Positions 9,834-22,481 of a stretch of DNA of 64,000 nt are shown here, piece after piece (the stretch's first letter is position 1; the number at the start of each line of letters is the position of its first letter). The position numbers were made by a program, and so were the translations under genes. Source of the DNA: an uncultured Candidatus Saccharibacteria bacterium. Its GTDB lineage: Bacteria > Patescibacteriota > Saccharimonadia > Saccharimonadales > Saccharimonadaceae. Location: positions 20,719 to 84,718 of the forward strand of contig CAZADM010000001.1 in NCBI GenBank assembly GCA_964483955.1, written 5' to 3'. The notes under the pieces were generated by a model, which saw nothing but the letters and a program-made list of their open reading frames with translations, had not been told where the DNA came from and searched no databases.

Positions 9834-9837
<4 letters not shown>

Positions 9838-10946
9838 TTTGTAATGAAATAGTCAAATGAAAATGTCTGGTTTGCTGGTGCTGCATTGGCGGTGCATATA
9901 CTGAAGTTTGCTGCACTTCGGTTGACGTAGTACTGCACCTGTCCGGCTGCTTGGCCAACCGGGCTTACAATAACGCGTGGCTGTCGGTCAAATTGCCTAT
10001 TGAAGTTAATCTGTGTAAAGCAGCCAGGTGCCGGGCTATTGCCAGTCTGGATATTGATAGTTCCAGCAGTATCTGAGCCACTGAGTGAAAGTGTGCCGCC
10101 AGACCCTAGGGTTGTGTAGTTAAGTGTGCCACGCCCTGGTGTCGGGCCTGTAAAGCCAATATGGTTCGGAACCTCTAGTGTTGCATTGCCGCTTAAGATG
10201 AGCCGTGTGACAGTAAGCTGGTTTGCTGTGATTGGTCCGCTGAGGGTTGTTGCACCTGATACCGATAGGTCTCGCATTGTGGTTGCACCCTGTACTGCAA
10301 GTGTGTTCTGGACCTGGAGTGTGTTTGACTGGGTGTCGCTTAGGTTTGCTGTTCCGGATATGGTAATGCTTGGAGCTTGAATATTTCCACCAGTTTGAAG
10401 AGTACCTGCAATATTAGTACTACCGCGCATGAGCGTCTGTCCTGCGATAATAGCATTTCCTTGTATGGTGAGTGTTTGGGACGTATTGCCAACGGAAACG
10501 TCGGTATTTGCAAGCTGCTCTAATGTTTTGTCTGCGAGTTCTTGTGTCGCAATGTCTACGACGGGATTTGCCCTTTGGTTGTTTAGATAGTTTACGACAG
10601 TAATAGCACCCGCAACGACAAGGAGGAGGAAGAAGATCAGAAAGTACACATTCACCTTCTTTAGGAAGCGCTTTAAGGCTGACGGCTTTTTCTCTACGGA
10701 TGTTGCGGCTGGCATTTCGCTGGATGCCATTTGTTCTGTGCGTTCTTGCTCAAGATCCTCTGGGGTTCGACTGAGTGCATCTGCTGGTGCTGGCTCGCCG
10801 GCTTCCTCCTGCCCTGCTGGTGCGGTGTCGTTCTCTTGCTTGGTGCTTTCTTCAGTTGACGGGGCAGCATCAATAGGAGTGTCGGGCACCCGGCTTGTGT
10901 CCTGATCTTCTGCTGGAGTATCTTGCGGTTTATTTTCTTCGTTCAT
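9834..10946 (-). CDS. Type II membrane protein: acidic/Pro-rich cytoplasmic tail, one TM, extracellular beta-helix-like repeats and a possible H-type-lectin-like C-terminus
   Basis: TM is VYFLIFFLLLVVAGAITVV. Repeats run TLTIQGNAIIAGQTLMRGSTNIAGTLQTGGNIQAPSITISGTANL...LAVQGATTMRDLSVSGATTLSGPITANQLTV. The C-terminus is INFNRQFDRQPRVIVSPVG...FSFDYFI. The stop codon overlaps the atpC stop. Confidence 0.7.
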
Positions 10947-11051: not shown

Positions 11052-11804
11052 ATGAAGACGCTTATGCGAAATAAATATACATATAAAGGTGTGAGACTTG
11101 TACAACTGTGCTTTGTCGCGGTATTTATTGCTAGTGCACTTGCATTGCCTGTCCAAGCTGTAACGTCGTCATCGGAGAATTATCAACTTACTGAGTCGCA
11201 ATTTAATGGCGGGACTGTCGCCGAGGGTTGTTCCGAGAGCTACTGTAGCCAGGCTTCTATAGGTGATATGAGTGGCTCGGTAGGCAAGAGCTCTGCGGCT
11301 TTTGACCAAAAACCAGAAGACGAACCAATCCTTGAAGTGATTGTCGATCCCGGCGAGTCTAATCTTGGTGCACTGACAACTGAACATACGGCAACAAAAA
11401 CGATGATTGTCCGGATACGGAATAATCTCAGTGAGGGATATGTACTTCAGCTTATCGGTGCGGCACCGAAGTTTGGTGAGCATTCACTCAGAACCTACGC
11501 CGTTCCTACGGCTTCAACGCCCGGTATAGAGCAGTTTGGGATAAACGTTGTTGCAAACACAACGCCACTTATTGGGGCAAGTCCCGCACAGATCCCTGGG
11601 GGGCAGGGCGTATTTGGTGATGCCTATGACGGATACAATACACCCAATCTATTCAAGTACACAAGCGGTGATGTTATTGCCAGAAGTACTCGCTCTGAAG
11701 GGCGTACAGACTATACGGTGAGCATGATTGTCAATATTGCAAACACAACACCTGCGGGTAAGTATGTGGCCGACTTTGCAGCCGTTGTTATCCCCACGTA
11801 CTAG
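11052..11804 (+). CDS. Secreted protein A of the surface locus (small WxL-like subunit)
   Basis: Signal peptide (..ALALPVQA/VTSS), GIEQFGINVVANTTP, and the C-terminal end NTTPAGKYVADFAAVVIPTY. Confidence 0.75.
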   Translation: MKTLMRNKYTYKGVRLVQLCFVAVFIASALALPVQAVTSSSENYQLTESQFNGGTVAEGCSESYCSQASIGDMSGSVGKSSAAFDQKPEDEPILEVIVDPGESNLGALTTEHTATKTMIVRIRNNLSEGYVLQLIGAAPKFGEHSLRTYAVPTASTPGIEQFGINVVANTTPLIGASPAQIPGGQGVFGDAYDGYNTPNLFKYTSGDVIARSTRSEGRTDYTVSMIVNIANTTPAGKYVADFAAVVIPTY

Positions 11805-11934
11805 CATTTCTGTGGATAACTAGAGACTGTGGAAAACTTATTGACGGATTTCATTGCCAAGCCATACTGATAATGCTAAAATATCGACGTAACCCTATTG
11901 TAGGGAGCAGTAAAATAAACATAGAAGGAGACAT

Positions 11935-13509
11935 ATGAGTACTCATAAACTCAAGTCAGTCGCACAGCGCGGTTCTATGCTAGTGGCGGCAGCAGCTCTT
12001 GTAGCAGCAACAATCGCCCCAGCAGCAGTATTCGCTGATGCACTCAATCCTCTAACCGAGCGTTCATTGCTACTTAGTAGCTCTGCGCCAGGTTTCCAGG
12101 ATACGGACGGTTCAGGTAATTCAACCGCTAGTCCAAACCCATCCGCAACGGGTGGTCTATCAACAGACCCTGGATACATTCCAGGTACCTATGCACCTGC
12201 GGGATCTGGTGCAAACGGTATGAAGACTGGTCAGTCATTTAGCTTCCGCGTCAGCACAAACAGTTCATCGTCAAATGCAGTGAAGGCATTTACGCTTCAG
12301 TACTGTACGGAAGCTGCCGGTCTCTGTAAGGCTCCAGGTAACAATACTGGAGATGCACGTGCATTCGATCGTGAAGCTAACGGTACCCAAGGTGATGCCC
12401 GTACTCCGGATCGTCTATCAAATGCAGCGTCTAAGGCTGACAGCAAGAGCGACCTTGATGTAAACTACACATCACCAGTTGCTGGTACAGACTTCCAGAT
12501 CTTTGTTGACGGTGTAGATCAGTCTACTGGCTGGACAATGACAACAAGTAACGTAGAAGATTTCGCTCACTCCGGTGCACTTACTGGTAAGAAAAACTTC
12601 ATTACACTTGCAAACGGAACTGGTATCAACCCTGCTGCAAATGCAAAGATTGAGATTAAGTTCTTTGCAACTGAAACTAACTACATCACTAATCCAGGCT
12701 CAGGTGCATTCTTTGTAAAGATGAATACATACAACAGTGAGCTTCCTGCAGACCACCTCCCAGCAACCGATGAGAATATCATCGACGGTGGTGTTACTGT
12801 TGCAAACGTGATGACTGATTCAATCCACATCACAACAAAGGTACTTGAAACAATGGCCTTCTCTGTGGGTACGCAGAACCCTGATACAGTTGTTAAGGGT
12901 AGTGCTAACGATCACGGTACATGTGAAAGCATCCTTACTCCTAACGGTAACCGACTCCAGCTTGGTAACCCTGACGCTGAATACTCACTTGAGACAGGCA
13001 AGGCTTATGATGTAAAGTCATGGTGGCGCCTCTCATCTAACTCATCTGGTGGTGCAACAGTCTACTACTCAGGTGAAACACTTGCAAACACAGTTGGTGA
13101 CGTTATTGCCCCAATTGGTGGTACACGTGCAACAAGTCAGCCAGGAACAGAGCAATTTGGTCTTGCGTTCATGGATCACGATGCTACTTCAACCTCATTT
13201 GAAGAGCAGCGTGCAGCAAACGCTACGCGTTATCGCAATCCAAATCTCTACGTCCTTAACGAAGGTGAACAATACAACTACGGTAACGGTACACTTGACA
13301 ATGGAAGTGGCGGTGCGGGTACAGCACAATTCGCATTCCTTCGCTCAAGCCTTACAAACCCTGTAGCTATTGCAGACAACCTTGGTGCAGAAAGTTCAGT
13401 TCTCACCTGCGAGACTGCTCAGATGCGCTACGTTGCGAACATCGGTGCAGATACACCAGCTGGTGTCTACACAACTAAGATTAACTACCTTGCTGCTCCA
13501 CAATACTAG
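11935..13509 (+). CDS. Secreted protein B of the surface locus (probable major structural subunit)
   Basis: Strong SD (GAAGGAGA) and signal peptide (..PAAVFA/DALNP). The mature N-terminus carries ERSLLLSSSAPG. It also has GTEQFGLAF, the C-terminus DTPAGVYTTKINYLAAPQY, biased codon choice (ggt/ctt/aac) and a strong terminator immediately downstream. Confidence 0.85.
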   Translation: MSTHKLKSVAQRGSMLVAAAALVAATIAPAAVFADALNPLTERSLLLSSSAPGFQDTDGSGNSTASPNPSATGGLSTDPGYIPGTYAPAGSGANGMKTGQSFSFRVSTNSSSSNAVKAFTLQYCTEAAGLCKAPGNNTGDARAFDREANGTQGDARTPDRLSNAASKADSKSDLDVNYTSPVAGTDFQIFVDGVDQSTGWTMTTSNVEDFAHSGALTGKKNFITLANGTGINPAANAKIEIKFFATETNYITNPGSGAFFVKMNTYNSELPADHLPATDENIIDGGVTVANVMTDSIHITTKVLETMAFSVGTQNPDTVVKGSANDHGTCESILTPNGNRLQLGNPDAEYSLETGKAYDVKSWWRLSSNSSGGATVYYSGETLANTVGDVIAPIGGTRATSQPGTEQFGLAFMDHDATSTSFEEQRAANATRYRNPNLYVLNEGEQYNYGNGTLDNGSGGAGTAQFAFLRSSLTNPVAIADNLGAESSVLTCETAQMRYVANIGADTPAGVYTTKINYLAAPQY

Positions 13510-13540
13510 ACCGACATATTATTTGTAGGTAATCTTGAAT

Positions 13541-13572
13541 ACAGCCGCGCATGTCGCGGCTGTATTATTTTC
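13541..13572 (+). terminator. Rho-independent terminator after gene B
   Basis: A perfect 9-bp stem, ACAGCCGCG / CGCGGCTGT, with a 5-nt loop, followed by ATTATTTT. Confidence 0.8.
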
Positions 13573-13627
13573 TCGCCTCAGTCTTGTTAGTGTCAGGATC
13601 GGTATTATCTAGTACAATAGGTATATA

Positions 13628-14707
13628 ATGAAGCACAGGGTATATAGAATTCATCCAGAGGTAAGCCACTGGCGGCATATTGGCCCAGAGGTGTTTATTG
13701 CTCTTGTGCTCTCTGTGCTAGTACTTATACCTTCAGTCGGAGCTGCATCTTTCCGTTTCCAGGAGCGAAGCCTCTATATGAACAGTACAGCTCCCTCTGA
13801 AGAGACGTACTACAAAGTCTCTTTTCGCTACATGAGCCCGCTCCCTGTTGGTTCGGTCGATATGTTGTTCTGTATTGACCCAATTCCACACCATGAATGC
13901 ATCGCACCTGCCGGTCTTGATGTTTCACGCGCGGAATTGTCGTCGCAAACAGGTGAGACTGGCTTTACTATATCCTCAAAAACTACCAACAGGATTGTCC
14001 TTTCGCGTACACCATCTTCAATTCCTGTCCAGAATGAATCTTCTTATGTGTTTGATAATATAGTTAATCCAACTGATACAACGCAATCATTTTCTATACG
14101 CCTGAAAAGTCACAGTACTAATAACGCCTCCGGCCCGCAAATAGATTTCGGATCAATAAAGGGCCAGGTTACAAACGGCATCAATATTGAAACACAGGTG
14201 CCACCGATGCTCATTTTCTGTCTTGCGGAAGAGGTATCAGACAACTGCACCGAAACTAACGAGACCTACTTTAGGGATCTGGGTGAACTTACGCCTTCTG
14301 ATACACTGTCTACACAGTCACAGATGGCTGTTGGGACAAACGCAACTGGTGGTTTTGCTGTAACCGTCTATGGAACGCCAATGAGTGCGGGTATTCATAC
14401 CATCCCATCCCCTTCAGAGCCAACAGAAAGTAAGCCCGGAAGTAATCAGTTTGGGATCAATCTTGTGGAAAATAGCATACCTCAAGTGGGGAGGAATCCA
14501 GAAGGTGTTTGGGCAAATGCAATTGTCGCCGACGACTATTCTGAAACCAATAAATTCAAGTACACGCCTGGTGATGTTGTTGCATATTCACCCAATGTCA
14601 GCTTGATGAAGAAATTTACCGTTAGTTATGTCGTCAATGCAAGTCCTAACCTTCGAGCTGGTGTATATAGCACAACACTCACGTATATAGCGAGCGGACG
14701 CTTTTAG
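13628..14707 (+). CDS. Secreted protein C of the surface locus (paralog of B and F)
   Basis: Signal peptide, mature N-terminal FQERSLYMNSTAP, a ..FC.....ECIAPAGL block, GSNQFGINLVENSIP, and the C-terminus NLRAGVYSTTLTYIASGRF. Confidence 0.8.
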   Translation: MKHRVYRIHPEVSHWRHIGPEVFIALVLSVLVLIPSVGAASFRFQERSLYMNSTAPSEETYYKVSFRYMSPLPVGSVDMLFCIDPIPHHECIAPAGLDVSRAELSSQTGETGFTISSKTTNRIVLSRTPSSIPVQNESSYVFDNIVNPTDTTQSFSIRLKSHSTNNASGPQIDFGSIKGQVTNGINIETQVPPMLIFCLAEEVSDNCTETNETYFRDLGELTPSDTLSTQSQMAVGTNATGGFAVTVYGTPMSAGIHTIPSPSEPTESKPGSNQFGINLVENSIPQVGRNPEGVWANAIVADDYSETNKFKYTPGDVVAYSPNVSLMKKFTVSYVVNASPNLRAGVYSTTLTYIASGRF

Positions 14708-14762: not shown

Positions 14763-15818
14763 ATGAAACGCTTTGCAAGCATTATTACTGCATTTGCTGT
14801 CGCTGCAACAGTTGCCTTTATGCCGTCTGGTGATGCTGCTGCGCAGTCGTCGGCCGCATTAAGCATTACACCAAAGAAAAACTACACCATAGAGGCGGGA
14901 AAGAGTGTCAGGGACACACTCACAATCAGGAATCTTGATCGTGAACGTACGCTTGATCTTACGCTTAATGTTGTAGATTTTACATTTAAAGACGACGGGG
15001 GTACTCCGGAGTTGATGCTGGCAGAAGATGCACCACAAACGACATGGTCGCTAAAGCCTTTCATTAAAGTGCCTAAGACGGTGAAGATTAAGCCAATGGG
15101 AAGCGAAACACTCGATATGAGTGTCGCTATTCCGGCCAAGCAAGGTGCGGGCAGCTACTACAGTGCAATTGTTTACTCTTCTGGAACTCCAGAGGGCGGC
15201 AACGTTGGGCTCAGTGCATCTGGCGTGACGCTTGTATTTGCAAATGTCCCTGGAACGGTAAAAGAAAACCTTACGCTAGAAAAGTTTGGTTTATATAGGC
15301 CTGAAGCAGATGGTAAGCAGGCGAAGTACCTCAGGCTTGCAATTAATAATCCACAACGCGTTGCCTATACGCTTGCAAACGAGGGGAACGTTGCCGAGAG
15401 CCCGGTTGGTTCTATTACCCTTCGCCATATGTTTGGTCAAGAAGTTAACGTGACCGACATCAACCCGCAGGGTTCACTTGCACTTATTGGACAGACGCGA
15501 ACTTTTGTCGCCTGTCTTGCAACAAAAGATGCCAACCTCGAATTAAATGGTGAAGAACGATCAAACGCGAAGGTCTGTGACGACCAAGTGCTATGGCCAG
15601 GAATTTATACTGCAACAATAGATGCCTACTACGGGCAAAACGGTAATAATACTAAAGAAATTACTGGAACGACGTGGTTCATTTATGCACCGTGGTGGTC
15701 TCTCGTAATTCTTCTTCTTGTTATTGTCGGGGTTATCCTCCTATCGTTCAAAATTACCCGGGCGAGTAAGTCGAAGCGTCGCACAAATCGTTCAAGAAAA
15801 TCTGCACTTCGTCGGTAA
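14763..15818 (+). CDS. Ig-like surface protein with a C-terminal TM anchor and basic tail (DUF916/DUF3324-like; CscA/WxL-interacting-protein-like architecture)
   Basis: Signal peptide, then LSITPKKNYTIEAGKSVRDTLTIRNLDRERTLDLTLNVVDF..., AIPAKQGAGSYYSAIVY, a second beta domain, and WWSLVILLLVIVGVILLSF + KSKRRTNRSRK. Confidence 0.7.
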   Translation: MKRFASIITAFAVAATVAFMPSGDAAAQSSAALSITPKKNYTIEAGKSVRDTLTIRNLDRERTLDLTLNVVDFTFKDDGGTPELMLAEDAPQTTWSLKPFIKVPKTVKIKPMGSETLDMSVAIPAKQGAGSYYSAIVYSSGTPEGGNVGLSASGVTLVFANVPGTVKENLTLEKFGLYRPEADGKQAKYLRLAINNPQRVAYTLANEGNVAESPVGSITLRHMFGQEVNVTDINPQGSLALIGQTRTFVACLATKDANLELNGEERSNAKVCDDQVLWPGIYTATIDAYYGQNGNNTKEITGTTWFIYAPWWSLVILLLVIVGVILLSFKITRASKSKRRTNRSRKSALRR

Positions 15819-15842
15819 AGTAACTATAAGGTGGAGTGTGAA

Positions 15843-16763
15843 ATGCACAAAGCAAACAGCCCGATAGTCTTAATAAAGAAGGTGACCCTCGTTTTCGTAG
15901 GGTCGCTTCTGCTTACCGTCCTGCTGCTCTCAAATCATGCAAGTGCCTTGACACCACTTCCGACACCAGATCCTAAGCCAGGATCGTTTGGTGTTGAAGC
16001 GACTAAGATGAAAGATCCGCCCACTGTCAGTGCTTCAATCTCAGTTCCGGGCAATGGCGCTCAATTTTCCACCTCACCAACAACAGTAAGTGGCACCTGC
16101 CCCGAGGATCTTCTTGTCCAAATATTTAACAACAATGTAATGGTTGGTGCCGTTGTATGTGAGAACGGAAGCTTTTCGATACAAGTGAGCCTTTTTGCGG
16201 GGACTAACGAGCTTACGGCAATCGTGTACGATGAACTTGATCAGGCTGGCCCTGTCTCTGCCGTTGCTACCGTCACCTATACGGACACCCGCTTTAGTGC
16301 CTTCGGGCAGCTTATTACGCTCACAAGCTCATATGGAAGGCGTTCTGCTCCAACAGGGACGCAACTTGCATGGCCGCTTCAACTTTCAGGGGGCACTGGT
16401 CCGTACGCTTTCAGTATTGATTGGGGTGATGGGTCAAGTGCGGAGCTTAAGAGTCAATCTCTTGCAGGGCTAGTGAATCTTTCGCACACATATAAAAAAG
16501 CGGGCATCTATCCAGTAAACGTTAGGGTGACCGACGCTAACGAGGTGAGTGCGTTCCTCCAGGTTATAGCCGTCTCCTCTGGTATTGTCGAGCAGACCCC
16601 AGAGGAAAAGAAGGCAGCCGAGGAAAAGATTGCCGTCTTATGGATTCCTTCTGCTGTTGCCGTAGGGCTTCTTGTTCCAACATTTTGGCTTGGACGACAA
16701 AGTCAGGTTGTGTCAATTCGCAAAAAGATGCTCAAGGAGCGCGACACGTACGCACAAAAATAA
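15843..16763 (+). CDS. PKD-domain / bacterial-Ig-like surface protein with a C-terminal TM anchor
   Basis: FSIDWGDGSSAELKS..LSHTYKKAGIYPVNVRVTDANEVS fits the PKD consensus WDFGDGS..H.Y...G.Y.V.L.V.D. C-terminal TM is LWIPSAVAVGLLVPTFWL. AAGGTGGAG precedes the ATG at 15843; the ORF track starts at the GTG at 15831. Confidence 0.75.
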   Translation: MHKANSPIVLIKKVTLVFVGSLLLTVLLLSNHASALTPLPTPDPKPGSFGVEATKMKDPPTVSASISVPGNGAQFSTSPTTVSGTCPEDLLVQIFNNNVMVGAVVCENGSFSIQVSLFAGTNELTAIVYDELDQAGPVSAVATVTYTDTRFSAFGQLITLTSSYGRRSAPTGTQLAWPLQLSGGTGPYAFSIDWGDGSSAELKSQSLAGLVNLSHTYKKAGIYPVNVRVTDANEVSAFLQVIAVSSGIVEQTPEEKKAAEEKIAVLWIPSAVAVGLLVPTFWLGRQSQVVSIRKKMLKERDTYAQK

Positions 16764-16826: not shown

Positions 16827-17981
16827 ATGTGGAGACGTTTTTTGAGGGACCTATTGTTCACCATCCACACGAGGCGGTACTTGAGGCCTATCGGCCTTGT
16901 CGCTATGATGGGTGGTATCTTGTTGACGTTTTCTTCTTTTGCTGCCGCAGAGCAGCTACCAAGCCGATCGGTTCAGTTATCAAGTGCATCGGCTGCCGCA
17001 ACTGACGTTACGTATATCTTTGATTTCACTGTGAATTCAGCTGCAGGCGCATTTGTTGTTGATTTTTGCAGCAATTCTCCACTTGTGGGAAGTGCTTGCG
17101 TTGCTCCGGCTGGTATGACTGTCGCTGGTGTGACAGTTTCTCCTTCTGGGTATGTGAAAAATGCAATGGATAGTAATACGTTTGCTGTTGCTGCGACACT
17201 TGCGGCCGAGTCGACACATACGGTAACCGTAAGTGGTGTCACAAATCCGTCCGCCTCTGGTGTTGTGTATGCTCGTATCATTACTTATGACACACTTACC
17301 AACGCCCAGCTCTACACCCCAGAGGACTTAGGGGCAGGAACTGTCGACGGAGGCACTATAGCGTTTTCGATTACAGACACGGTGGGTGTGAGTGGCTCTG
17401 TTCTGGAGAGTGTTACGTTTTGCGTATCGGGTACGGTAATTGGTGAAAACTGTACTAATGTCGCACAGCCAGTCTTGAAACTAGGTGAACAGACCGGTGA
17501 TGTCCTTGCTTTAACCCCTTCAGCAGTGAGTGAGGGTGTTATCTATGCACAGGTCTCAACCAATGCTGCTAATGGTGTGACAGTTAACCTGAAAAGCAGT
17601 GCAATGCAATGTGGCGGGCTTTTGCGTGCTGGTGGCGGGGTAGCGTGCGATATCGGCCCAGCACTTGATGATGGCATATCTGCGGGGCAGGCCCTGTTTG
17701 GTGTAAAGGTAGAGCCAATTACAGACACCGCACCACAGGCATCGGGTGTCTTTAAGGCGGCAACCGGCTCTATATATGGGCCGCTTCGTTTTTCTCTTAA
17801 CTTTGTTTCTGGGGATGCGAGTGGCATAACGAGTACGTTTGGCGACCCCTTCCTTGATACTGACGATGCACCTGCAAATAACAAAAATGTCGCTTTGAGA
17901 TTTGGTGCAAGTGTGAGTAACGATACACCAGCGGGTCTCTACTCTACCGATTTGAGCCTTATAGCTGCTGGGAAGTTTTAG
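16827..17981 (+). CDS. Secreted protein F of the surface locus (paralog of B and C)
   Basis: Signal peptide (..FSSFAAA/EQ), mature N-terminal SRSVQLSSASAA, VVDFCSNSPLVGSACVAPAGM, GQALFGVKVEP, and the C-terminus NDTPAGLYSTDLSLIAAGKF. Confidence 0.8.
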   Translation: MWRRFLRDLLFTIHTRRYLRPIGLVAMMGGILLTFSSFAAAEQLPSRSVQLSSASAAATDVTYIFDFTVNSAAGAFVVDFCSNSPLVGSACVAPAGMTVAGVTVSPSGYVKNAMDSNTFAVAATLAAESTHTVTVSGVTNPSASGVVYARIITYDTLTNAQLYTPEDLGAGTVDGGTIAFSITDTVGVSGSVLESVTFCVSGTVIGENCTNVAQPVLKLGEQTGDVLALTPSAVSEGVIYAQVSTNAANGVTVNLKSSAMQCGGLLRAGGGVACDIGPALDDGISAGQALFGVKVEPITDTAPQASGVFKAATGSIYGPLRFSLNFVSGDASGITSTFGDPFLDTDDAPANNKNVALRFGASVSNDTPAGLYSTDLSLIAAGKF

Positions 17982-17985
17982 TGAC

Positions 17986-19026
17986 ATGGCAGGTCATCTG
18001 TTTCGTTACGCGATAGCGATTGGCCTCTCTGTAGTTCTTTCTGCTAGCTGTGTCTTTATCTTTGCTCAGGGCGTATCTGCACAGGAGAGTAAGACGGCAA
18101 ATGTCCTAAAGGTCTCTCCGGTACGTACTGACATTGAAGTGTCGCCTGGTGGAACGAAAGTTATACAGGCGACCGTTGCTAATCTTGCGGACGCTCCTAT
18201 AACCGTGCGTCCAGTTGCAAATGACTTTATTGCAGGTGACGAGCGCGGCACTCCCGCTTTGATTCTAGAAGAAGATGCATTCGCTCCGACCCATAGCTTG
18301 AAGCGTTTCATGTCCCCGCTCTCTACGGTGACAATACCTGCACGCAGTGCAAAGACCATCCAGGTTGTGATTACCGTCCCGCCAACGGCACAGGCCGGAG
18401 GTTATTTTGGGTCTGTACGGTTTATGCCGAGCGACCCGGACGAGGGAGGGCAGGTGAATATGAGTCCAAGTGTGGCTTCGTTGATACTACTGAAGGTACC
18501 TGGTGCTATGGTTGAAGAATTACGCGTTGCGTCTTTCTCTGTGCAGCAAGGTGATTCGAGTGGGTTTTATTTTAGGTCACCAGACAATATCTCGGCATTA
18601 GTTCGTTTTGAGAATAAGGGGAATGTACAGATTGCACCACTGGGTAAGATTCAAGTGCAAAAGCGTGATGCTGTTGTGTTTGAATCTGATTTCAATACAG
18701 TAAATCCGTACGATATGATTCTTCCTAATAGTACGCGCCGCTGGGACGTACCTATAAAAGAGCTTGATGCTTTTGGATATTACACACTTACTGCAACGCT
18801 GACATATGGCTCTAAAAACAAAACACTAGAGTTGTCTCATTCATTCTGGATTGTGCCACTTTGGGCACTTCTTGTTGCGATACTACTGGTGGTGATTGTT
18901 GTAGGCGGTGTTGTTGCCCTGATCATCTTCGGTATAAGAAAGTTGCGACGCCCCGCTTCGCATAGCCCACGACAAGGAATACAGCTACGGAAGCACCGAA
19001 AGCGTCGTCGCAGATTTGGTCGCTAG
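17986..19026 (+). CDS. Second Ig-like surface protein with a C-terminal TM anchor and poly-basic tail (paralog of 14763-15818)
   Basis: LKVSPVRTDIEVSPGGTKVIQATVANLADAPITVRPVANDF..., VPPTAQAGGYFGSVRF, MILPNSTRRWDVPI...GYYTLTATLTYG, and the TM WALLVAILLVVIVVGGVVALIIF + RKHRKRRRR. Confidence 0.7.
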   Translation: MAGHLFRYAIAIGLSVVLSASCVFIFAQGVSAQESKTANVLKVSPVRTDIEVSPGGTKVIQATVANLADAPITVRPVANDFIAGDERGTPALILEEDAFAPTHSLKRFMSPLSTVTIPARSAKTIQVVITVPPTAQAGGYFGSVRFMPSDPDEGGQVNMSPSVASLILLKVPGAMVEELRVASFSVQQGDSSGFYFRSPDNISALVRFENKGNVQIAPLGKIQVQKRDAVVFESDFNTVNPYDMILPNSTRRWDVPIKELDAFGYYTLTATLTYGSKNKTLELSHSFWIVPLWALLVAILLVVIVVGGVVALIIFGIRKLRRPASHSPRQGIQLRKHRKRRRRFGR

Positions 19027-19087
19027 TGGTATCTCTCTATGATTGGCGACAGATGACGCGGGCTCCTCGTTAGGGTACACTAGAGTA

Positions 19088-20284
19088 ATGCAGACATTTT
19101 CTTTTACTATTACACACGCCCCTGGGGACTCGCGGTTTATGCGTACAGGTATCATTTCAACACCGCACGGCGATATCCATACACCGGCATTTATTCCAGT
19201 TGGTACGCAAGCGGCAATGAAGGCGCTGACAGTTGATATGATGGAATCGGTTGGGGCCCAGGCATTACTTTCAAATGCGTACCACCTTTATATCCAGCCG
19301 GGCCACGAGCTTATTCGTCAAGCCGGTGGCATACATTCTTTCATGAATTGGAAAAAGCCTATCTTTACAGATTCAGGTGGGTTTCAAGTACTTTCACTCG
19401 GGAGCGGCTATAAAAAGACAATCGAGATGTCCACTGGGACTGCAACTGAGAACACTAAGAAGAGTGCACGTCACGCCTTTGTAGATGAGGATGGGGTGAC
19501 GTTCAAGTCACACAGAAATGGCTCTTTGCATACATTTACGCCAGAAGTATCTATGAATATACAGAATGGTATTGGTGCCGATATCTGTTTCGCATTCGAT
19601 GAACTTACTTCACTTGTAGATCCTTATGACTATCAAGTGGAGGCATTAGAGCGAACGCGGCGGTGGGCAATCCGATCACTCGACGAGTTTAAACGGCTTC
19701 GCGAGACCACAGAGAATTACCAGGCACTGTTTGGTGTCATTCAGGGGGCGAATTTCGAGGATTTGCGCAAGAAGGCCGCAAAAGATCTTGGTGCTATGGA
19801 TTTTGATGGGTTTGGCATCGGTGGTGCTATTGAGAAGAGCCAACTTGGCGAGATTGTCCGTTGGGTGAATGAAGAGTTGCCGGCAGATAAGCCGAAACAT
19901 CTTTTGGGAATTAGCGAGCCAAGCGATATTTTTGCTGCAGTCGAGCAGGGTGTTGATACATTTGATTGTGTCGCACCTACGCGTGAAGCAAGAAATGGTG
20001 CTATCTACACGTCCAGCGGGCGATATAGCGTCACTACGGCGGCAAATCGGCATGAATTTACTCCGCTAGAGGAGGGGTGTGCTTGTTACGTATGCCAGAA
20101 CTATACGCGTGCATACATGCACCACCTCTTTAAAGCCAAGGAAATGCTTGCCTCGACACTTGCCTCGTATCACAATGAGTGGTTTATTATTCATCTTGTC
20201 GACAATATTCGCGAAGCCATTGCAAATGGAACGTACGATTCTTTTAAGTCTGATTTCTTTACTTCGTACTACAAGAATAAGTAG
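19088..20284 (+). CDS. tgt: tRNA-guanine transglycosylase (queuine tRNA-ribosyltransferase)
   Basis: TPHGDIHTPAFIPVGTQAAMK, FTDSGGFQV, GIGG, and the Zn motif CACYVC...H. The start is set at the Met at 19088 (MQTFSF..). Confidence 0.9.
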   Translation: MQTFSFTITHAPGDSRFMRTGIISTPHGDIHTPAFIPVGTQAAMKALTVDMMESVGAQALLSNAYHLYIQPGHELIRQAGGIHSFMNWKKPIFTDSGGFQVLSLGSGYKKTIEMSTGTATENTKKSARHAFVDEDGVTFKSHRNGSLHTFTPEVSMNIQNGIGADICFAFDELTSLVDPYDYQVEALERTRRWAIRSLDEFKRLRETTENYQALFGVIQGANFEDLRKKAAKDLGAMDFDGFGIGGAIEKSQLGEIVRWVNEELPADKPKHLLGISEPSDIFAAVEQGVDTFDCVAPTREARNGAIYTSSGRYSVTTAANRHEFTPLEEGCACYVCQNYTRAYMHHLFKAKEMLASTLASYHNEWFIIHLVDNIREAIANGTYDSFKSDFFTSYYKNK

Positions 20285-20728: not shown

Positions 20729-21415
20729 TTAGAGTAATGCGTCAATTTCTTTCTTTAAAGCGGTGAGGTCACTATTAGAAATGCCCTGTGCTGCCTCGTC
20801 GGAAATTTTCTTACCATTGAGAATAAACGTCGGTGTCGATGACACTTCGTCTTTCTTTCCAAGTGCTTGATCAAAACTAATCTTTTTCGCTACCTTTTCG
20901 CTTGCAAGGTCTTGCTTGAAGGTATCCGAATTAAGCTGAAGTGCTTCTGCATACTTATTAAATATTTCGGTGCGTGATGTAGGGTCTGCATTTTGCCACT
21001 CAGCCTGTGCCTGGAAAAGATTGAGGTTCATTTCCCAGTACTTTCCCTGGAGCCCAGCTGCTTCTGCTGCAGCTGCGGCAGCTTTTGCATTAGGGTGAAT
21101 GGTAGTGAGTGGGAAATTCCTAAATACAAAAGCAATTTTATCACCATACTCATCCATGAGAAGCTTCATGTTTGGCGATGCCCCTGCACATCCTGGGCAT
21201 TGAAAATCACCATACTCAATAAGAACAACCTTGCTATCCTTATTTCCCATTACGTGGTCACCAATAGTACCGCTGGCATCTGATCCGACGAGAATTGTCG
21301 ATGTGTTAACTGCCGATACGTCAAGCGGCGGGTTTGCTATGCGTGTCCATGCTATGAGGCTTCCCAGCACTAGAACGACGGCAGTCACAAATATAATCCA
21401 ACCTGTTTTTGTCAT
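20729..21415 (-). CDS. Membrane-anchored DsbA/BdbD-family thiol:disulfide oxidoreductase
   Basis: N-terminal TM (WIIFVTAVVLVLGSLIAW) and the thioredoxin motif YGDFQCPGCA. The start is set at MTKTGW (21415); the longer ORF-track N-terminus overlaps the divergent neighbour. Confidence 0.8.
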   Translation of the reverse strand: MTKTGWIIFVTAVVLVLGSLIAWTRIANPPLDVSAVNTSTILVGSDASGTIGDHVMGNKDSKVVLIEYGDFQCPGCAGASPNMKLLMDEYGDKIAFVFRNFPLTTIHPNAKAAAAAAEAAGLQGKYWEMNLNLFQAQAEWQNADPTSRTEIFNKYAEALQLNSDTFKQDLASEKVAKKISFDQALGKKDEVSSTPTFILNGKKISDEAAQGISNSDLTALKKEIDALL

Positions 21416-21470
21416 GTATTCCTCCTGTTTTCTCATACTATTGTACCAGACGCTGGGGTACAATAGAGAC

Positions 21471-22481
21471 ATGCTTATGTCTATTGTACTTATTATTGTG
21501 TTTGTGCTTGCGGTTATTTTAGGCTCCGTGCCGCTTCCCTCGGATTCTCTTCGACGCTCAGAGCTTATTCGTCGTGCGAAGCATTCTGCCGCCTTTAAAA
21601 AACGGCTTGAACGGGATAGCCTGCATGTCCATGCAAGGACAATGCTTGGTGCCACAAGTATCTTTGTGGCGATACTCTTTACTTCACTAACCGTTGTAGC
21701 GTACGGCTGGCTTGGTGGTGTGTTTGTCTCGTGTGTCGCTGCAGTGTTATATGTATTTCTAGTGAGGCAATCAGGCGTTCGCACACTTAGTGCTCGTTTA
21801 TTCCAGTATGTAGACCCGTATGTGTTTGCATTTGCACGCAAAGTGCCGCCTGTTTGGAAATTCCTGCGTATTACTCCAAGGCACCCAGTAGCCGATACCC
21901 TCGTGCTTTCGTCAAGAGAGGAGCTTGAAGAGGCGATTGCCCTGTCGGCCGATGCCCTCAGTCATCGAGAGCGGCAACTTCTTGGCCATGTACTTGCTTT
22001 TAACGATAAGAAAGTTTGTGACGTTATGACGCCACGGTCTGTGATACGAACGGTTAATAGGGCAGAATTTCTAGGTCCACTTGTTCTTGATGAGCTCCAT
22101 AACACTGGACACGGTCGCCTGCCAGTTATTGACGGTGATATCGATCATGTTGTCGGTATATTGCATTTGCGTGATTTGCTATCTCTTGAGAACAAGAAGT
22201 CCGCAATTGCAGAGGCACTTATGGAGAAGAAAGTTTTCTATGTAAACGAAGATACTGCACTGTACAGTGCACTTGCAAGCTTTATTCGTCACCATCACCA
22301 CCTCTTCATTGTTGTGAATAATCAGCGGGAAACGGTTGGTCTCTTGACACTTGAGGATGTTATCGAGGCACTTATAGGTGAGGCGATAGTCGATGAGGAC
22401 GATCAGAATACGGACATGCGTAAGAAGGCGGCTCAAAAAGCAGGCGAGAATAATAACAGCCCTCATGGCATCTACCTCTAG
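21471..22481 (+). CDS. DUF21/CNNM-type membrane protein with a CBS-domain pair (CorC/hemolysin family)
   Basis: TM-rich N-terminus followed by DVMTPRS..., HGRLPVIDGDIDHVVGILHLRDLL, LFIVVNNQRETVGLLTLEDVIEALIGE. The start is set at MLMSIVL (21471). Confidence 0.75.
   Translation: MLMSIVLIIVFVLAVILGSVPLPSDSLRRSELIRRAKHSAAFKKRLERDSLHVHARTMLGATSIFVAILFTSLTVVAYGWLGGVFVSCVAAVLYVFLVRQSGVRTLSARLFQYVDPYVFAFARKVPPVWKFLRITPRHPVADTLVLSSREELEEAIALSADALSHRERQLLGHVLAFNDKKVCDVMTPRSVIRTVNRAEFLGPLVLDELHNTGHGRLPVIDGDIDHVVGILHLRDLLSLENKKSAIAEALMEKKVFYVNEDTALYSALASFIRHHHHLFIVVNNQRETVGLLTLEDVIEALIGEAIVDEDDQNTDMRKKAAQKAGENNNSPHGIYL

Follow-up and report, generated by a model that had tools for sequence, protein, structure and literature searches.

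What does a run of seven consecutive genes, flanked by those for ATP synthase on one side and by tgt on the other, build on the surface of an uncultured Saccharibacterium, and, if its products polymerize, which strand would join one subunit to the next? These questions are raised by the segment 11052-19026 of a 64,000-nt stretch of contig CAZADM010000001.1 (the window), in which the genes, here labeled A to G, all lie on the + strand. A first-pass annotation of this DNA had proposed a fiber held together by donor-strand exchange, with B as the highly expressed major subunit, C and F as minor subunits, A as a cap or tip, D and G as immunoglobulin (Ig)-like accessory proteins, and a conserved N-terminal strand as the donor. 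Our analysis indicates that the locus is, with high probability, a pam operon encoding a "Pam" pilus of the candidate phyla radiation (CPR) type, with the subunit roles given below and with the inter-domain linker of the pilins, not their N-terminal strand, as the donor.

The seven genes match the Pam pilus operon one to one

Single-particle cryo-electron microscopy (cryo-EM) has been applied to the thin filaments of Ca. Mycosynbacter amalyticus, a parasitic Saccharibacterium (Troman et al., bioRxiv 10.64898/2026.03.03.709456; the Pam preprint below). Two pilins were identified, i.e., PamA (55.3 kDa; resolved at 2.8 Å) and PamB (38.7 kDa; 3.6 Å in the main text and 3.3 Å in the supplement), which polymerize by donor-strand exchange via a linker strand. 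Stretches of PamA and PamB alternate within one filament, part of the interface between subunits is formed by the N-terminal domain, and the two pilins rank 2nd and 9th, respectively, in the M. amalyticus proteome (Table S1 of the Pam preprint). The other products of the operon are a single-domain tip (PamT), a third pilin (PamE), a membrane-anchored terminator whose N-terminal strand is predicted to insert into PamE (PamR), and two PapD/FimC-like chaperones with a C-terminal membrane helix (PamC and PamD), a strand of which is predicted to complete the C-terminal domain of the pilins; no trans-envelope machinery was reported (10.64898/2026.03.03.709456). The Pam system itself is already known, and curated NCBIfam models exist for PamT (NF058579; cut-off, 240 bits), PamR (NF058578; 300 bits), and the Pam pilin C domain (NF058581; 55 bits).

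The best BLASTP matches of A to G are, one to one, the M. amalyticus proteins PamT, PamA, PamE, PamD, PamR, PamB, and PamC (45 to 64% identity), and the order of the genes is identical in M. amalyticus (CP045921) and in a second genome. M. amalyticus also shares the flanks, i.e., the ATP synthase genes and a gene for a "tail-fibre-like" protein, the latter being a one-to-one best match as well. Gene A (11052-11804, +) corresponds to the tip pilin PamT (57% identity), with 268.1 bits for the equivalog model NF058579. Gene B (11935-13509, +; 524 amino acids, 54.5 kDa) corresponds over its full length to the major pilin PamA (55% identity; best M. amalyticus homologue, P0047, WP_260763287.1/QHN43273.1), and in the nearest genome of the species collection PamA is 70% identical to B. 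Gene C (13628-14707, +) corresponds to the two-domain pilin PamE (57%), gene D (14763-15818, +) to the membrane-anchored chaperone PamD (57%), gene E (15831-16763, +) to the RbmA-like anchor or terminator PamR (64%; 368.6 bits for the equivalog model NF058578), gene F (16827-17981, +) to the second major pilin PamB (45%; WP_260763280.1), and gene G (17986-19026, +) to the membrane-anchored chaperone PamC (46%). The pilin C domain model NF058581 was passed by A (155 bits), B (65.8 bits), and C (155 bits). The four cysteines of B and six of F are in line with the two and three disulfide pairs reported for PamA and PamB. A, B, C, and F carry a signal peptide only, while D, E, and G end in transmembrane (TM) segments with basic tails. 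Every feature of Pam membership that can be tested on sequence was found in the locus.

Most of the roles proposed for these genes in the first-pass annotation agree with these assignments. The reading of B as a highly expressed major subunit is borne out by the rank of its orthologue PamA in the M. amalyticus proteome, and that of A as a cap or tip by the PamT equivalog match; A consists of the acceptor domain only, without the N-terminal domain (N-domain), linker, or N-terminal motif of the other pilins, and its sole hydrophobic segment is the signal peptide. D and G, proposed as Ig-like accessory proteins, appear from their orthology to PamD and PamC to be chaperones. The proposal of F as a minor subunit fails, its orthologue PamB being the second major (shaft) pilin. 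C, which carries both the linker and the N-terminal motif (residues 44-57), is predicted to be the base or proximal adaptor, and E would serve as membrane anchor and terminator.

The inter-domain linker is the probable donor strand

The fiber built by donor-strand exchange that was anticipated for this locus is supported by the cryo-EM structures of the orthologues PamA and PamB; the question is which strand is donated. According to the main text of the Pam preprint, it is the inter-domain strand, joining the N- to the C-terminal domain, that is accommodated by the adjacent C-terminal domain (10.64898/2026.03.03.709456). In B, this linker is ANVMTDSIHITTKVL (residues 289-304; 12799-12846, +). 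Outside the C-terminal strand, the PamA alignment contains two fully conserved short segments, one at the mature N terminus (..ALNPLTERSLLLSSSAPG..) and the other, G285-G312 (GGVTVANVMTDSIHITTKVLETMxFSVG), spanning the linker. The latter is 100% identical in the eight loci that we compared (the window included), and the linker itself is invariant or nearly so in 120 PamA orthologues.

An AlphaFold2 (AF2) monomer model of full-length B, based on a 120-sequence alignment, consists of two confident beta domains (predicted local distance difference test [pLDDT], 86.5; predicted template modeling score [pTM], 0.77), of which the N-domain, with two short helices and approximately 11 to 13 strands, agrees with the published description of PamA. 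Low confidence is restricted to the start of the protein, the region of signal peptide cleavage, and residues 289-304, where the linker has a pLDDT of <50 and no secondary structure. Invariance in a segment that a monomer model fails to place is the behavior expected of a donor strand. The linkers of PamA (SIHITTKV), PamE (GINIETQV), and PamB (TVGVSGSV) have an alternating pattern that fits a groove-filling strand, and the N-terminal strand of PamR (GSFGVEATK) resembles them, unlike the N-terminal motif described below. These models and alignments point to the linker at residues 289-304 as the most likely donor.

The donor candidate of the first-pass annotation was the N-terminal motif LTERSLLLSSSAPG of B (residues 40-53; 12052-12093, +), which aligns with FQERSLYMNSTAPS in C (residues 44-57; 13757-13798) and LPSRSVQLSSASAA in F (residues 44-57; 16956-16997). 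That such a segment is shared by the mature forms of B, C, and F was confirmed by our alignments (pattern, [LF]x[ED]RS[LIV]x[LMI]xS), and the motif is absent from A. L40, T41, R43, S44, L45, L47, S49, and S50 are invariant in the 120 PamA orthologues, the motif is at least 90% conserved across 120 PamB orthologues, and the remainder of the N-domain is less well conserved than the motif across PamA, PamB, and PamE. A role of the motif as donor was not supported. When residues 1-288 of B were modeled alone, with the linker and C-terminal domain removed, the motif still formed a strand (E44-47; pLDDT, 85 to 92), and pLDDT rose from 78 to 85 for residues 41-50 and from 88 to 92 for residues 51-60. 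Retention of this strand in the truncated model argues that the motif belongs to the N-domain, independently of the acceptor domain. The ERSLxLxSS motif is thus most likely, as modeled, the first strand of the N-domain rather than a donor. Because PamA and PamB stretches alternate in the filament and the N-domain adds to the interface, the motif may be located where the N-domain meets the C-terminal domain (C-domain) of the neighbor or at a chaperone contact, either of which would have to stay compatible between paralogues.

Two further features had been noted in the pilins. A C-terminal strand ending in an aromatic residue had been listed in the first-pass annotation, and Tyr or Phe is indeed the last residue of A, B, C, and F alike. 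The block Y.F.F...DFC...C.APAG, described there as common to B, C, and F, stands out in the latter two; in B it is degenerate, with the Cys pair retained. Separately, the predicted mature N termini of PamR (SAL(T/N)PLPTP..; 15831-15950) and PamA (ADALNPLT..; 12037-12060) have AL(N/T)PL in common just past the predicted signal peptide cleavage site. This may be due to chance or to a common processing or docking context.

The mechanism that we propose for the locus would run as follows. The subunits would be exported by Sec, each with a C-terminal Ig-like domain short of one strand. The gap would be filled first by a strand of one of the membrane-anchored two-Ig-domain chaperones (D and G) and then by the donor strand of the next subunit, i.e., the conserved linker that leads from the N-terminal beta-sandwich to the C-domain (B 289-304, ..SIHITTKV..). 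B would provide the abundant shaft pilin, F the second shaft pilin, and A the tip. Donor-strand exchange would thus take place without an usher and without an outer membrane, and the linker would be, in effect, an N-terminal extension of the chaperone-usher type with an extra domain fused ahead of it. With Pam pili, its abundant thin filaments, a parasitic CPR bacterium makes contact with its host, and their assembly is a form of donor-strand exchange that uses no usher; the window contributes one further orthologous pam operon.

Expression signals of pamA

B looks like a separate, strongly expressed unit that runs from its own promoter to its own terminator. The first-pass annotation had credited B with the strongest Shine-Dalgarno sequence of the locus, a restricted codon choice, and a perfect 9-bp terminator directly downstream, and all three are present. 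The Shine-Dalgarno sequence GAAGGAGA (11924-11931, +) lies 3 nt from the ATG at 11935, and its 6-nt core, AAGGAG, is unique to B among the genes of the locus. Among 56 non-overlapping open reading frames (ORFs) of at least 120 amino acids in the window, B has the lowest effective number of codons (Nc, 39.9; the next is 46.3, and most are between 50 and 58) and is tied for the lowest GC content at third codon positions (0.37). The codon use of F is ordinary (Nc, 54.3). In a comparison of pamA that covered L002 (10001-11602) and L003 (10001-11596), the Nc in the closest relative was 44.4, again the lowest of its locus.

A promoter-like site with an extended -10 element precedes pamA (11854-11882, +; TTGCCA-17-TGcTAAAAT, 10 of 12 consensus positions), and an intrinsic terminator follows it (13538-13575, +), with a 12-bp stem, a 5-nt loop, and a T-rich tail. 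The stem (13538-13566) is longer than first reported; the perfect 9-bp GC-rich pairing ACAGCCGCG/CGCGGCTGT forms its core. It folds with an energy of -20 kcal/mol (z, -5.2), a stability that was reached by none of 200 shuffled sequences. Beyond the terminator lies a second promoter-like site, which would serve pamE and the genes after it (13590-13618, +; GTGTCA, 17 nt, TACAAT). With promoter-like sites of their own on either side of a terminator, B and the genes after it are separated in such a way that B looks like its own transcription unit.

This design is conserved across Saccharibacteria. Upstream sequence was available for seven of the eight loci, and all seven have AAGGAGA and an extended -10 element before pamA. 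The -10 element reads TGnTAAAAT in the window and in the loci L002, L003/L004, L007, and L010, TGCTACAAT in L006, and TGCTATCAT in L009. A GC-rich hairpin with a T-run is found within approximately 50 nt 3' of pamA in all eight loci; those of L002 and L003 were missed by a simple terminator scan and were found by direct reading and RNAfold. In L002, L003, L007, and L010, a TAGTACAAT element stands between the pamA hairpin and the next gene. The pamA gene thus recurs as a promoter-to-terminator unit with a strong Shine-Dalgarno sequence.

A small stem-loop was also observed at the start of the pamA leader (11883-11934), approximately 10 nt past the -10 box, and at the corresponding place in L002 (approximately 9940-10000), L003, L006, L007, L009, and L010. 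The stems vary and yet remain complementary (CCCT/AGGG, CCTCT/AGAGG, CCCC/GGGG, and CCCTG/CAGGG) and are followed by an A-rich leader and AAGGAGA. Folding energy by itself does not make the hairpin significant (z, -0.19), its support coming solely from its conservation with compensatory changes across loci. It could be a 5' mRNA-stabilizing hairpin.

Homology of PamC and PamD to WxL-interacting proteins

G matches the Pfam family PF06030 (WxLIP_PGBD, i.e., DUF916), which comprises WxL-interacting proteins (WxLIPs), with an E value of 2.2e-5 and 24.9 bits, below the cut-off of 27.3; the matches of G, D, and their M. amalyticus orthologues to this family all fall just under the cut-off. Precomputed annotation places PF06030 in 98 of 120 PamC orthologues. 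When G was compared with a plasmid collection by tblastn, all 12 weak matches fell in genes of the WxLIP type, 8 of them annotated as DUF916 or DUF916-DUF3324 and 4 without such annotation. Five WxL clusters of Firmicutes and a DUF916 gene of Streptomyces were taken for comparison, and a target for profile-profile alignment (hhalign) was built from five Firmicute DUF916-DUF3324 WxLIPs (three annotated and two read as ORFs) and the one Streptomyces DUF916 protein. The PamC profile matched this target with a probability of 99.1% (E value, 5e-19) over 248 columns covering both Ig domains and the membrane helix, and the PamD profile did so with a probability of 96.5% (E value, 8e-10). The TM segments lie at residues 304-335 of D, followed by a basic tail, and at residues 283-321 of G. 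As judged from sequence profiles, PamC and PamD are demonstrably full-length homologues of the Firmicute WxLIPs (DUF916-DUF3324-TM). This homology is beyond the available literature; "WxL" and "DUF916" are not mentioned in the Pam preprint (10.64898/2026.03.03.709456).

We also considered whether the C-domain of the Pam pilins is a WxL domain, given by-eye resemblances (..NLG.., G[YFW]x[LV]x, and ..PAGxY..). These resemblances were unsupported in four tests and were rejected. Comparison of the pilin C-domain with WxL domains by hhalign gave a probability of <1% with separate and with pooled profiles (number of effective sequences [Neff], 3.8), and hmmsearch between the pilin C-domain and nine WxL domains was not significant in either direction. 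The Pfam WxL domain (PF13731) was found in none of 10 pilin-type proteins (A, B, C, and F of the window; PamT, PamE, and PamB proteins from L002 and L003; and P0047) and in none of 120 PamB orthologues; Pfam searches with the pilins found no family. In UniRef, PamA bears the name "WxL domain-containing protein," the provenance of which is not established.

As an observation on the Firmicute clusters themselves, their small WxL proteins (L012, 5071-5874; L014, 5125-5838; L015, 4936-5742; and L016, 5063-5857) contain a short conserved strand-like segment (..ITFTPG, IKFKAG, and VTFLED..) and, after it, a Pro-rich spacer that leads into the WxL domain. The layout is reminiscent of a donor strand placed ahead of an acceptor domain.

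It is possible, although we regard it as doubtful, that one ancient monoderm system, using a chaperone without an usher, has Pam pili as one branch and the WxL/WxLIP (Csc) surface protein clusters found in Firmicutes and Actinomycetota as another. If the pilin C-domain were a WxL domain that has diverged too far for its sequence to be recognized, donor-strand exchange may also polymerize, or at least hand over, the WxL proteins of Enterococcus, Listeria, and Lactobacillus, and the conserved strand and Pro-rich spacer before the WxL domain would act as the donor.

Alternative explanations

Several points weigh against the reading of the locus as a pam operon with a linker donor. The system comes from a 2026 preprint, identity to the characterized Pam proteins is nowhere above the range of 45 to 64%, and F scores 33.8 bits with NF058581, under the cut-off of 55. 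Sequence searches of the PDB with B, F, G, and D found no relative in a set that did not contain the cryo-EM entries 25PZ and 25QA (EMD-80296/80297). For the organism of the window, we infer filament formation and strand exchange from the behavior of the orthologues described in the preprint. The codon restriction of pamA is lineage-dependent: the M. amalyticus gene has an unremarkable Nc of 49.5 and no codon bias, yet its product is the 2nd most abundant protein. As to the donor, AF2 monomers cannot show insertion between subunits, and the pairing of E44-47 was deduced from the truncation alone. In conservation the N-terminal motif equals the linker, and it is more alike than the linker between paralogues that are otherwise approximately 23% identical; a supplementary legend (Fig. 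S5) of the preprint, moreover, speaks ambiguously of a "donated N-terminal linker" (10.64898/2026.03.03.709456).

The last of these points bear on the mechanism of the first-pass annotation, in which the groove of the neighbor is filled, in the chaperone-usher manner, by the ERSLxLxSS strand that B, C, and F have in common. It is favored by a motif that is invariant in orthologues, common to such distant paralogues, and missing from the tip protein A, by the wording of the supplementary legend, and by the AL(N/T)PL shared by mature PamA and PamR, given that the N terminus of PamR is predicted to insert into PamE. We nonetheless consider this mechanism improbable, since the main text of the preprint repeatedly names the inter-domain strand, the motif is ordered without the linker and C-domain, and the invariant linker is the sole internal segment left unplaced. 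The motif, moreover, has just two consistently hydrophobic positions and an invariant Arg, against the I-x-I-x-T-x-V alternation of the linker, and the donor-like strand of PamR resembles the linkers rather than the motif. A hybrid is also conceivable, in which the linker is donated while the N-terminal strand also acts between subunits, either as an edge strand of the N-domain that packs on the C-domain of the neighbor or extends its sheet, or as a handle for PamC and PamD. Such an arrangement would explain why the motif is conserved, beyond the remaining N-domain, across paralogues that are interchangeable within one filament, and it accords with the reported contribution of the N-domain to the interface in filaments where PamA and PamB stretches alternate; a pTM of 0.77 despite an unplaced linker suggests contact between the modeled N- and C-domains. 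The motif is modeled equally well without the C-domain, however, and so needs no partner to fold. We rate the hybrid as unlikely, if less so than donation of the N-terminal strand itself.

A more radical alternative dispenses with the pilus: the locus would encode a WxL-type surface complex in which B, C, F, and A are wall-bound adhesins, held by D and G and unpolymerized. D and G are clear homologues of WxLIPs, the UniRef name of PamA points the same way, and the makeup of the cluster parallels that of WxL clusters, with a small single-domain protein, larger proteins having the same C-domain, and a membrane-anchored two-Ig protein. Against this stand the filaments of the orthologues resolved by cryo-EM, a WxL domain undetectable in the pilins by Pfam, hidden Markov model, or profile-profile comparison, and the absence of an LPxTG protein from the locus, where no protein contains an LPx[TSA]G motif. 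This explanation is very hard to credit, and a pam operon whose pilins would exchange the inter-domain linker remains by far the preferred reading.

Gene starts and neighboring genes

The starts of two genes are uncertain. For E, the ATG at 15843, preceded by AAGGTGGA, may be the true start instead of the GTG at 15831, and for F, the public collection calls the protein from Met28 (357 amino acids) rather than from 16827. The same collection yielded 415 homologues of F. E contains a PKD domain and a C-terminal TM segment at residues 267-287.

Between atpC and pamT, the - strand encodes a conserved 370-amino-acid membrane protein (9834-10946), which is the one called "tail fibre-like" in the preprint. 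It has an acidic Pro-rich N terminus, one TM helix, a repeat-rich beta region, and a weak bactofilin-like match; its counterpart in M. amalyticus is 58% identical, and L002 and L003 have the gene at the corresponding position. The operon is followed by tgt and a gene for a CBS-domain/CorB-like protein (21231-22481 and 19043-20284). A CorB-like gene near pam operons has been noted (10.64898/2026.03.03.709456), and the genes between pamC and the CorB-like gene in the window are unlike those of M. amalyticus.

Comparison with known systems

The closest counterpart is the Pam pilus of M. amalyticus, with which the locus has in common the order of the seven genes, the flanks, the number of Cys pairs, the two-domain pilins with a conserved linker, and the C-terminal TM anchors of the chaperones and PamR. 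The two differ at residue 356 of PamA, a glycosylated Ser in M. amalyticus and a Lys here (matched by residue number, not by alignment), in the codon restriction of pamA, which is strong here and absent there, and in the genes 3' of pamC, i.e., tgt here and a methyltransferase and CorA there.

The locus works like a chaperone-usher system (Pap/Fim) but is not a member of that family. Both have Sec-exported subunits with an incomplete Ig-like domain and a C-terminal aromatic residue, a donor strand immediately N-terminal to the incomplete domain, a tip subunit without a donor strand, and two-domain Ig-like chaperones that fill the groove first. In the pap and fim operons, too, the major subunit gene is followed by a terminator, which there sets the stoichiometry. 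The Pam pilins differ in being two-domain proteins with an extra N-terminal beta-sandwich before the donor strand, so that the candidate donor is internal and the N-terminal segment is folded into the N-domain; there are two shaft pilins, and the filament is linear, not coiled (10.64898/2026.03.03.709456). None of the seven genes encodes a large beta-barrel protein that could be an usher. D and G lack the PapD Pfam signature at E values up to 1; both are membrane anchored and match DUF916/WxLIP. In Foldseek searches with the full-length model of B, self-complemented FimA and CS20 were recovered at marginal E values of 0.02 to 0.04, and neither this model nor that of the N-domain had a match in the PDB at an E value of ≤0.001, the hits being generic beta-sandwich adhesins and CBM3 only.

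Archaeal threads, type V pili of Bacteroidota, TasA, and Ena likewise use beta-strand complementation to form stable thin fibers without an usher, relying on terminal strands of single-domain or differently built subunits. To our knowledge, none of these uses membrane-anchored PapD-like chaperones. The Pam pilins have no sequence match or significant fold match to them (Pfam and Foldseek).

The WxL clusters differ from the pam locus in their WxL motifs, absent here as defined, in their LPxTG partner, and in that WxL proteins are described as peptidoglycan bound, not filamentous (Hassan, Chaudhuri & Williamson 2023, PMC10599100). They resemble it in their proteins of PamC/PamD-like size with a signal peptide, a C-terminal TM helix, and a basic tail, and in the logic by which a small protein consists of a lone domain, larger proteins have that domain at the C terminus, and a WxLIP is anchored in the membrane. 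By AF2, a strand of the WxLIP is predicted to complete the incomplete beta-sandwich of the WxL domain (PMC10599100), as a strand of PamC or PamD is predicted to do for the pilins. Membership of PamC and PamD among the WxLIPs ties the CPR pilus to these widespread and poorly understood surface protein clusters of Gram-positive bacteria.

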